The position numbers and the translations under genes are program-made. This document shows, one piece after another, positions 1 to 1,847 of a stretch of DNA of 1,847 bases. The notes below the pieces were generated by a model. It was not told the DNA's origin, made no database searches, and saw only the letters and a list, made by a program, of their open reading frames with translations. Each line of letters begins with the position of its first letter. The first letter of the stretch is position 1. Origin of the DNA: Naegleria gruberi (lineage: Eukaryota); the NCBI GenBank assembly GCA_000004985.1, contig GG739315.1; one strand, 5' to 3'.

Positions 1-684
1 GAATGGATTATATTCTAATTCCTCTGAAGTTTCCATATTTTTTTGAGAAACTGATCCAGTGGAAAGTGATGGGTTATATTCTACAAATTTTGACGATCCC
101 CAACAGATTTTTTGGGAAGCTGATCCTATACAAACCAGACATTCATGTACAAAATTAAAATCAGTCATTTGTAACAAATTCAAAATCTGACTCTTATTCT
201 TATAATACAAATATCCAAAATCTTTTGTCCATTCTTGAATTGGAGCAATAATATTTACAGGATGAAACAAGGAATCAGTCCAATCCATTCTTCCGTTTGT
301 TTTCTTCAATAATTCTCTAGTATAAAAATCAAGTTTAAAGCCTGGCATTCTTGTTTCGAAATTGGAAATTTCCTCTTCATCAACAGGCTCTTCATTCAGT
401 GCTCTCAGAATAAGATCTTCATCATTCAATTCCTTGAATATAGCCAAAAAGTCTCTCCTCTCCACAGATAGACAAGCCATCCTCAAATCAAGACAAACCA
501 ACTCGATCACCATTCGATGTTTTTCCTCTAAATAACTAATGATCAATTCTAAAGTATCGGGAGACATTAATTCTTTCCATCGGGTTTCAATTGATGAAGG
601 ATTTATATGATAGATACATGATGTTGATGATGATTCATTGTCCTCCTGTTTTTCTGATTCCTCGACTTCTCGTTCCGACAACAT
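1..684 (-). CDS. Protein-coding gene with its 5' end complete (ATG at 684..682) and its 3' end running off the window at position 1. It encodes an F-box-like domain protein. The N-terminal 228 aa read MLSEREVEESEKQEDNESSSTSCIYHINPSSIETRWKELMSPDTLELIISYLEEKHRMVIELVCLDLRMACLSVERRDFLAIFKELNDEDLILRALNEEPVDEEEISNFETRMPGFKLDFYTRELLKKTNGRMDWTDSLFHPVNIIAPIQEWTKDFGYLYYKNKSQILNLLQMTDFNFVHECLVCIGSASQKICWGSSKFVEYNPSLSTGSVSQKNMETSEELEYNPF...
   Basis: I translated the reverse complement by hand, codon by codon. Plus-strand frame 1 (positions 1-3, 4-6, ...) contains no TTA, CTA or TCA triplet from 1 to 771, so the minus frame is open for 228 codons. The first in-frame stop upstream of the ATG is TGA at 774..772, with no in-frame ATG between it and 684. 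The start context is A-rich with A at -3 (atcatcATGt) and has no Shine-Dalgarno. Residues ~36-74 (WKELMSPDTLELIISYLEEKHRMVIELVCLDLRMACLSV) fit the F-box pattern L-P-x-E-[IL]-L-x-x-I-[LF]-S-Y-L-[DE]...V-C. Codon usage (TTG/TTA Leu, AGA Arg, GAA Glu, AAT Asn) resembles Saccharomycetaceae. The ORF track omits it because no stop falls inside the window. Confidence 0.75.
   Translation of the reverse strand, partial: MLSEREVEESEKQEDNESSSTSCIYHINPSSIETRWKELMSPDTLELIISYLEEKHRMVIELVCLDLRMACLSVERRDFLAIFKELNDEDLILRALNEEPVDEEEISNFETRMPGFKLDFYTRELLKKTNGRMDWTDSLFHPVNIIAPIQEWTKDFGYLYYKNKSQILNLLQMTDFNFVHECLVCIGSASQKICWGSSKFVEYNPSLSTGSVSQKNMETSEELEYNPF
463..579 (-). other. F-box-like motif in the minus-strand ORF, residues ~36-74: WKELMSPDTLELIISYLEEKHRMVIELVCLDLRMACLSV.
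   Basis: This is a by-eye match to the F-box consensus (PF00646-type: LPdEil..Il.yLd..dL....VCk.W). The conserved hydrophobic positions are kept: L-x-P-x-x-L-x-L-I-x-S-Y-L, and V-C after a ~10-residue spacer. The usual Trp after V-C-K is replaced here by Leu (VCLDL). No profile search could be run. Confidence 0.45.
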
Positions 685-941
685 GATGATAAAAATCTTC
701 TCCCAACAAATATTTTTTTTGTGTTTAATTTTGGAAAGTTTACAATGTTTAAGAGCAGTGCCAAGTTCTTTTCATGAAATAGCACGTATTGAAATAAATT
801 GGTGTGAATAATGTTAAGTTTGCAAAAGAATATGAAAGTTTAAAAACTAATGAGACACCGTAGTAGAGCAAGTGAATGTGCTACGAAACCAAGATCAGGT
901 TGAACCACATTGCAAATGATTAATTACAAAAAATAGAGTTC

Positions 942-947
942 TATAAT
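942..947 (+). promoter_or_regulatory. TATA-like element (cTATAATtt) about 104 bp upstream of ATG 1051.
   Basis: TATAAT is a 1-mismatch fit to TATA(A/T)A(A/T). The spacing suits a yeast-style TATA-to-TSS distance of 40-120 bp, which would give a short 5'UTR for the plus-strand gene. This is sequence-only evidence with no expression data. Confidence 0.25.
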
Positions 948-989
948 TTCAGCAGTGTTACTTGGCAGCATTATCCAAAAACTGACCGA

Positions 990-996
990 TGACTAA
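990..996 (+). promoter_or_regulatory. AP-1-family site TGACTAA (Yap1-type YRE, or a Gcn4 half-consensus).
   Basis: This is an exact TGACTAA heptamer. Yeast bZIP factors bind TGACTAA (Yap family) and TGACTCA (Gcn4). A single 7-mer in 366 bp of AT-rich DNA has a modest chance expectation, so this is low confidence. Confidence 0.15.
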
Positions 997-1002
997 TTTC
1001 CT

Positions 1003-1010
1003 TATTTAAA
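1003..1010 (+). promoter_or_regulatory. Second TATA-like element, TATTTAAA, 41-48 bp upstream of ATG 1051.
   Basis: TATTTAAA has one mismatch to TATAAAAA-type boxes. If it is used with yeast spacing, the TSS would fall at or inside codons 1-25. In that case translation would begin at the second in-frame Met (1081), which still yields a good signal peptide. The alternative is that this is just AT-rich sequence. Confidence 0.2.
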
Positions 1011-1050
1011 CGTTCTAATATGGACTGATAACGCCAGCCCAGTAAAAAAA

Positions 1051-1134
1051 ATGGCACCACACAAATCTCTGCTCACAACAATGGTCGCCTTAATAGTAGT
1101 TACCTTAATACTCCTCGCCCCATCACTCTATGCC
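1051..1134 (+). other. Predicted N-terminal signal peptide or signal anchor, residues 1-28 (MAPHKSLLTTMVALIVVTLILLAPSLYA). The possible cleavage site is after Ala28, before ND.
   Basis: There is a positively charged n-region (H4, K5), then a ~17-residue uninterrupted hydrophobic stretch (MVALIVVTLILLA), then a small polar c-region (PSLYA with Ala at -1), and then N-D. One N-glycosylation sequon (N-N-T, FNNTAF) lies downstream, which fits a lumenal or extracellular domain. Without a predictor I cannot tell a cleaved signal from an uncleaved type II anchor. Confidence 0.55.
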
Positions 1135-1847
1135 AATGACTTGATTAACGCCAAGCTCGATACTACATATAATGTTAATTATCTTAATACAGAGGCTGAA
1201 CCTTCTGGTACTTATCTTTCATCTGAATACCAATATGATAATGCGTTTGGTCCGGTCACTGTGAATGATAATTTCCAAAACGTTCAAGTATTCTTTGAAC
1301 AACGCTTCAATAATACTGCGTTCGATTTTACACTTTCATTATTATCTGGAAAAGTTCTTCAACCAACAGCAACATTCGGAAAGTTGAAACTCTCAATGAA
1401 GTTGTACAATAATCCTGTGGAGAAGGTTGTGTTGAGATTTAATGCACCTTTGGGTATCTGGAATGTTGACCTGTTGAGACGTATGCAAGCTTACTTTTAT
1501 GATCCTACCACTTATACATCTGAATTAACTGTTCTTGGTGATCAATTTGGTGTCATTAGGAGATATATTAACATGTTTGAAGTTGAATTGAATTTGCCTT
1601 ATATTTTCCAAGCAATTCAAAAGACTGAATTTCAGCTTATTCTCTATACTGAAGACAGTCCTTTGGATCCAACTCCATTAGTTGATTATAGATGGATTGA
1701 AGTACCATATGCTGCATCATATGCTATGAAATTAGAATCAAATCCAAATTTCAATAGATACTTTACAATTGGATTCCCATCTATTACTCCTATTAATTAT
1801 ATGTTGTATCAACCTCCAAGATTCCTTCTTACTGAAGCTTATAATGT
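1051..1847 (+). CDS. Protein-coding gene with its 5' end complete (ATG at 1051) and its 3' end running off the window. It encodes a signal-peptide or signal-anchor protein of unrecognised family: MAPHKSLLTTMVALIVVTLILLAPSLYANDLINAKLDTTYNVNYLNTEAEPSGTYLSSEYQYDNAFGPVTVNDNFQNVQVFFEQRFNNTAFDFTLSLLSGKVLQPTATFGKLKLSMKLYNNPVEKVVLRFNAPLGIWNVDLLRRMQAYFYDPTTYTSELTVLGDQFGVIRRYINMFEVELNLPYIFQAIQKTEFQLILYTEDSPLDPTPLVDYRWIEVPYAASYAMKLESNPNFNRYFTIGFPSITPINYMLYQPPRFLLTEAYN...
   Basis: I translated frame 1 by hand from 1051 to 1845 and found no TAA, TAG or TGA: 265 full codons plus a partial one. The upstream in-frame stop is TAA at 994..996, with no in-frame ATG between 997 and 1050, so 1051 is the first ATG. 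The context aaaaaaaATGG is A-rich with A at -3, which is yeast-like, and there is no Shine-Dalgarno. Residues 9-28 form a hydrophobic core followed by polar ND. A second in-frame Met at codon 11 (1081) would give an even more canonical signal peptide, MVALIVVTLILLAPSLYA. The ORF track omits this gene because it lacks an in-window stop. Confidence 0.8.
   Translation, partial: MAPHKSLLTTMVALIVVTLILLAPSLYANDLINAKLDTTYNVNYLNTEAEPSGTYLSSEYQYDNAFGPVTVNDNFQNVQVFFEQRFNNTAFDFTLSLLSGKVLQPTATFGKLKLSMKLYNNPVEKVVLRFNAPLGIWNVDLLRRMQAYFYDPTTYTSELTVLGDQFGVIRRYINMFEVELNLPYIFQAIQKTEFQLILYTEDSPLDPTPLVDYRWIEVPYAASYAMKLESNPNFNRYFTIGFPSITPINYMLYQPPRFLLTEAYN

Follow-up and report, generated by a model that had tools for sequence, protein, structure and literature searches.

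The 1,847-nt stretch of DNA analysed here (the window) is a complete mini-scaffold of the Naegleria gruberi assembly (GenBank GCA_000004985.1, contig GG739315.1), and its minus strand carries, from position 684 down to position 1, the beginning of a protein-coding gene that is cut off at the contig end. A preliminary description made from the letters alone had proposed such a gene, forecast an F-box in its product and pointed to fungal proteomes for its relatives; the source organism is instead a heterolobosean amoeboflagellate (Discoba). We consider it likely that 684..1 represents the 5' portion of a real N. gruberi gene that seems not to have been annotated and that belongs to an F-box-like/SUKH-1(/DUF4116) family, encoding a putative adaptor of Skp1-Cul1-F-box (SCF) ubiquitin ligases. 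Translation leftwards from the ATG at 684..682 ran through the claimed 228 sense codons without a stop, and these belong to an open stretch of 257 codons (1..771), which is delimited by an in-frame stop at 774..772 and has 684..682 as its earliest ATG. The other five frames were indeed closed over 1..684, with 19, 9, 9, 17, and 20 stops. Because the window has 33.7% G+C and hence a stop probability of 0.069 per codon, 257 consecutive open codons would arise by chance with P ~1e-8, which bears out the improbability already claimed for this frame. Similarly, when the full window was shuffled 5000 times by mononucleotides, the longest open stretch over six frames averaged 80 codons, with a maximum of 173.

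We compared the 228-aa product of this partial coding sequence (1..684, minus strand, 228 codons) exhaustively, by phmmer, with 1.84 billion representative proteins and retrieved 13 relatives with E-values from 2.2e-80 to 8.5e-4. The top match, P0002 (784 aa, E 2.2e-80, 75% identity), is the uncharacterised N. gruberi protein NAEGRDRAFT_76141 (XP_002668908.1, UniProt D2W411), followed by P0003 (801 aa, E 8.1e-43, 52% identity); the remaining named matches come from N. fowleri and N. lovaniensis, and the others are metagenomic. A >90%-identical version of NAEGRDRAFT_76141, P0016 (816 aa, metagenomic), is carried by contig L001, to which window positions 69..581 align over 513 ungapped nt at 80% nucleotide identity. 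At the protein level, identity to NAEGRDRAFT_76141 is ~76% over ~170 codons, again with no gaps. Differences from the paralogue in L001 are distributed 28/16/58 over codon positions 1/2/3, and the Nei-Gojobori method yielded dN 0.146 and dS 0.77 (nonsynonymous and synonymous divergence, respectively), that is, dN/dS 0.19. Codon usage in this frame correlated with that of the annotated neighbour gene at r 0.63, as compared with 0.19-0.35 for mismatched frames. An alignment of 14 family N-termini further uncovered three invariant residues (R57, N87, and L96) and six nearly invariant ones (G131, R132, H141, N144, W152, and G187, the latter set outlining a 'TNGR...H..N...W' core), all of which are present in the window protein.

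The claim that a real gene is cut here by the sequence edge is thus upheld by homologues down to E 2.2e-80, dN/dS of 0.19, and codon usage like that of the neighbour gene. Where the preliminary description had allowed for a frame with no homologue and codon usage of a non-coding type, we found 13 homologues and the above r of 0.63. Lack of annotation is all that favours an open frame arisen by chance outside genes; homology and dN/dS refute this reading, the shuffles and the codon usage also speak against it, and its probability is virtually negligible. Collectively, four independent lines, namely open-frame length, codon usage, homologues, and selection, establish that the frame codes for protein, and the dN/dS shows purifying selection on it.

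Other searches returned nulls. A word-index protein search produced zero matches, whether the query was the 228-aa fragment or the alignment of 14 sequences, even though the collection searched holds a 76%-identical protein, and a single-protein query of metagenome contigs detected no close relative. The exact fragment protein, whether begun at Met1 (228 aa) or at Met40 (189 aa), is absent from a collection of 15 billion proteins. Viral contigs contained neither an exact match to the DNA nor a relative of the fragment, and an origin from a giant virus was therefore dropped.

Since the closest relative belongs to the same species and small unplaced scaffolds of draft assemblies are often alternative haplotypes, the window could in principle represent a second haplotype (allele) of NAEGRDRAFT_76141 rather than a separate gene. 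Nucleotide identity of just 80% and dS of 0.77 speak against this reading. Moreover, the similarity to L001 ends at window position 581, so that neither the 5'-terminal coding segment nor the upstream DNA aligns, and same-strand kinase and RhoGAP genes lie upstream in L001, with no copy of the divergent gene found to the right in the window (ORF B). Given the end of similarity at 581, the unrelated upstream DNA, and the different neighbours, we take the two genes to be paralogues; that they are alleles is barely credible.

The N-terminus of the predicted protein (residues 1-37; 574..684, minus strand) is an acidic, serine-rich leader, which is poorly conserved and predicted to be disordered, the AlphaFold2 (AF2) confidence score (predicted local distance difference test, pLDDT) being <50 for most of residues 1-31. 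Met40 (ATG 567..565) offers an alternative start. Nonetheless, the longer paralogue model P0016 conserves the pentapeptide 'RWKEL' directly before Met40, and N-terminal extensions are present in all other relatives, on which grounds the sequence favours ATG 684 as the likelier start. The RefSeq protein NAEGRDRAFT_76141 begins at the Met equivalent to window Met40 and P0016 begins 32 residues earlier; judging from the 'RWKEL' conservation, the former model may be N-terminally truncated.

Residues 38-86 (427..573, minus strand; LMSPDTLELIISYLEEKHRMVIELVCLDLRMAC...) constitute an F-box-like three-helix unit, as delineated by the family profile, the Pfam matches of relatives, and AF2 helices at residues 42-50, 54-60, and 65-86 (pLDDT of the block 85-91). 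Direct phmmer comparison of the fragment with the PDB gave only noise. A hidden Markov model (HMM) built from the 14-sequence alignment yielded seven PDB matches at E<=10, and six of these are F-box domains, those of TIR1 (E 2.4e-4), COI1, FBXO42, KDM2B, FBXL3, and beta-TrCP, all aligned with profile positions about 5-55. Five of the 14 family members match Pfam F-box or F-box-like models (best E 7.2e-5). In the relative P0014, residues 146-180 pass the F-box cut-off (20.9 versus 20.5 bits), and phmmer aligned this segment with window residues 42-72. Foldseek superposed the unit on the F-boxes of D3, FBXO22, and FBXL5 over 32-36 residues at 0.8-1.2 A, with E-values that are not significant because the unit is so short, although the order of the matches was informative. 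The protein has a three-helix bundle of roughly 40-50 residues near its N-terminus, upstream of the putative substrate-binding modules. The forecast of an F-box is therefore partly supported, with a consistent signal at the level of the family (profile, five of 14 members, P0014) and no Pfam F-box match at E<=10 for the window protein itself. The best reading is that the N-terminal unit is F-box-like, as a property of the family.

Downstream of these helices, residues 100-188 (121..387, minus strand) form the first two thirds of a SUKH-1 (SMI1/KNR4) domain, whose remainder lies at or beyond the left edge. Their match to Pfam SMI1_KNR4 (PF09346; E 2.7e-4, 22.0 bits, cut-off 25.4) is the sole direct Pfam signal in the window protein and had not been foreseen in the preliminary description. 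PF09346 was matched by 12 of the 14 family members at E<=1 and its cut-off was passed by P0004 (32.1 bits) and P0006 (26.0 bits). The seventh PDB match of the family HMM is the SUKH-fold protein 2pag, found through the SUKH part of the profile. The fragment contains the SUKH-1 fold, of the alpha+beta type.

The leftmost part of the gene (1..135, minus strand) is occupied by an in-frame degenerate tandem duplication of 22-23 codons, in which the block 67..135 (VCIGSASQKICWGSSKFVEYNPS) is followed by 1..66 (LSTGSVSQKNMETSEELEYNPF). Both blocks share a direct repeat of 14/15 nt at a spacing of 66 nt and align to each other with a score of 62. Shuffles scored 19.9 +/- 6.0 (z ~7), and no other block of this ORF (open reading frame) exceeded 34. 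The paralogues carry a single copy; accordingly, the 22-codon tail scored 73 against the paralogue's single block and 36 against its collinear continuation. The second copy has lost a hydrophobic ICW motif. This duplication may be a real lineage-specific event, a sign of decay, or an assembly artefact at the contig end.

These features bear on the possibility that this unplaced mini-scaffold holds a decaying duplicate, be it a pseudogene or a gene fragment, whose frame is still open over the visible 684 nt. The tiny contig, the lack of a call in the source annotation, and the 22-codon duplication that interrupts the SUKH domain with loss of ICW in its second copy are all compatible with such decay, and selection that acted on the other copy, or before any inactivation, also contributes to the dN/dS of 0.19 at dS 0.77. 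Even so, this same ratio implies that most of the divergence arose under constraint. Furthermore, 257 codons of 34%-GC DNA contain no stop or frameshift, the paralogue alignment is ungapped over 513 nt, the duplication keeps the frame, and R57, N87, L96, G131, R132, H141, N144, W152, and G187 are all retained. We therefore hold decay to be rather unlikely and continue to read 684..1 as the start of a genuine gene.

The relatives indicate what the contig end has removed. Those of full length span 470-925 aa and typically display the same layout, in which an N-terminal F-box-like helix bundle and SUKH-1 are followed, usually, by 4-14 DUF4116 repeats of a predicted alpha-solenoid; DUF4116 has been modelled as such a structure (PMC8078820). 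At least a weak DUF4116 match was evident in 11 of the 13 phmmer relatives, and nine of them showed strong multi-repeat matches. P0019 unites an F-box (249-281), SMI1_KNR4 (306-349), and eight DUF4116 matches in a single chain. The ORFs of the two closest relatives, of 2451 and 2406 nt, have no introns, and 4 and 9 stretches matching DUF4116 (PF13475) follow their window-homologous part. Because these two are so built, the window gene probably comprises ~800 codons, roughly 2.4 kb, with a DUF4116 tail, which would leave ~28% of it visible here; the missing ~1.7 kb would then encode DUF4116 repeats, as they do in both relatives.

Domain architecture, together with what is known of FBXO3 and SKIP16, makes an SCF substrate receptor resembling FBXO3 the most likely function of the product. 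The F-box-like helices would dock on Skp1-Cul1-Rbx1, while SUKH-1 and the missing DUF4116 solenoid would, on the model of FBXO3/SKIP16, bring in the substrates to be ubiquitinated. FBXO3 belongs to an SCF ligase, and an interaction with the Skp1 homologue ASK2 is known for SKIP16 (bioRxiv 10.1101/2024.03.22.586359); in an F-box protein, the SUKH domain has been described as sitting where substrates are recognised (PMC3113570). Several observations weigh against this explanation of 684..1 as a whole. The window protein passes no Pfam cut-off (22.0 versus 25.4 bits for SUKH-1) and lacks an F-box match even at E<=10; all Foldseek matches to the PDB are non-significant (E >= 0.15); the AF2 model is of moderate quality, with a mean pLDDT of 64; and the canonical F-box Trp is replaced by Leu. 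Besides, the 22-codon duplication, which is modelled as disordered, falls within the SUKH domain's C-terminal half and could impair the fold; the source genome annotators did not call the gene; and the window covers just the N-terminal part, the stop codon and the DUF4116 repeats falling outside it. AF2 was also applied to the complete N-terminal module of the paralogue, but this model was poorer (pLDDT 56) and was not used.

Some of these points would suit a real protein whose helices are F-box-like in shape only and do not bind Skp1, the SUKH/DUF4116 part serving as a scaffold or binder outside the ubiquitin system. The two closest relatives share the lack of a direct Pfam F-box match, the canonical LP..W positions read SP..L, and SUKH domains are generic protein binders in many settings (PMC3113570). 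Set against the family-level F-box matches described above, we judge such a protein to be improbable, albeit not far-fetched, and retain the putative SCF adaptor as the preferred reading.

Apparently, the left-hand ORF is unannotated in the source genome, where a differently spliced model is conceivable. Its omission from the program-made ORF list of the window was correctly attributed in the preliminary description to the running of the frame off the edge, such ORFs not being listed by design of the program. The sole entry of >= 60 aa in that list (603..785, minus strand) is a spurious 60-aa ORF with a GTG start, which overlaps the 5' end of the long gene in a different minus-strand frame, as had been noted; it is out of frame with the homology-supported frame and extends into upstream non-coding DNA. 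At the right edge, a plus-strand frame open over 997..1845 (283 codons, ATG at 1051) was likewise left out. By skipping genes that run off the ends, the lister hid both real genes of the window and retained the spurious 60-aa ORF alone.

This second frame corresponds to a divergent neighbour gene (1051..1845, plus strand), also cut by the contig end and annotated as XP_002668109.1 ('predicted protein, partial [Naegleria gruberi]'). Its 265 codons encode a protein 100% identical over 250 aa to P0001 (XP_002668109.1 / EFC35365.1); the RefSeq model ends at 1800 and the frame remains open to 1845. The neighbour protein starts with an N-terminal hydrophobic signal or anchor (MAPHKSLLTTMVALIVVTLILLAPSLYA), and no Pfam, PDB or other homologue of it appeared in the searches run. 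The two genes are separated by an AT-rich spacer of 366 bp (685..1050; 31% GC), which presumably holds the promoters and 5' untranslated regions of both as a shared bidirectional promoter region. This spacer contains no tRNA and no Rfam match at gathering score, and shows no similarity to the DNA upstream of the paralogue in L001. The AT-rich metagenome contigs L001 (1..7526, ENA ERZ929261) and L002 (1..4693, JGI 3300002220), of 33% and 38% GC, respectively, each carry a full-length family member next to genes of eukaryotic type (RhoGAP, protein kinase, ARL2_Bind_BART), from which we infer that Naegleria-like amoebae were present in the source samples. A relative of ORF B was found beside the family member in neither L001 nor L002.

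The window gene adds one paralogue to an uncharacterised family, exemplified by NAEGRDRAFT_76141, FDP41_006076, and C9374_011646, which is known so far from Naegleria and related metagenomic sequences only; our literature search found no paper describing a Naegleria F-box/SUKH/DUF4116 family. Its absence from the annotation of so small a scaffold is an ordinary gap, and no new type of feature is introduced. The biology is modest, consisting in an architecture that resembles FBXO3 but ends in another module and occurs in several paralogues per species. Those studying the evolution of SCF adaptors or of SUKH domains in protists could find it of interest; it opens no long-standing question.

Compared with NAEGRDRAFT_76141/P0016, the window gene has the leader, the F-box-like helices, and the SUKH-like region in the same order, but differs in its extra 22-codon tandem duplication, its separate locus, its different neighbours, and its unrelated upstream DNA; DUF4116 repeats are present in NAEGRDRAFT_76141, whereas in the window gene, within whose visible part none lies, they would be expected further on. 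With respect to SUKH-1 proteins of the SMI1-KNR4 group (PF09346; yeast Knr4/Smi1 and B. subtilis YobK), the window domain scores below the cut-off, is incomplete, and contains a duplicated segment, and unlike stand-alone bacterial immunity proteins it is fused to an F-box-like unit. Among the immunity proteins with which bacteria counter polymorphic toxins, those of the SUKH type are the commonest (PMC3113570). It is conceivable, yet very unlikely, that the multi-paralogue F-box-SUKH-DUF4116 proteins of Naegleria, a bacterivorous amoeba, are a separate or heavily reworked variant of the FBXO3 principle and capture bacterial toxins or effectors for ubiquitin-dependent degradation, with the window gene and its duplicated SUKH segment as a diversifying member, an idea drawn solely from domain architecture, paralogue count, and the SUKH literature.

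A known parallel in layout is the FBXO3/SKIP16/CEHC1 class (F-box + SUKH-1 + ApaG), with which the window protein shares the order of an F-box-like unit followed by SUKH-1. Unlike in FBXO3, ApaG (DUF525, PF04379) was matched in none of the 15 relatives scanned, and DUF4116 repeats stand in its place; the FBXO3 chains 9kbd and 9kbf, both in the PDB set, were not matched at E<=10 by either the fragment sequence or the family profile. Because its relatives lack ApaG and the searches never retrieved FBXO3, we do not file the window gene as an FBXO3 orthologue. The FBXO3 lineage has also been described as having no lineage-specific expansions (Zhang et al., PMC3113570), whereas there are several paralogues per Naegleria species, with at least five in N. 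lovaniensis among the clusters examined. An independent fusion of an F-box to SUKH-4 has been reported in fungi by the same authors (PMC3113570), and the Naegleria proteins either descend from the FBXO3 lineage by remodelling or arose through another independent fusion.
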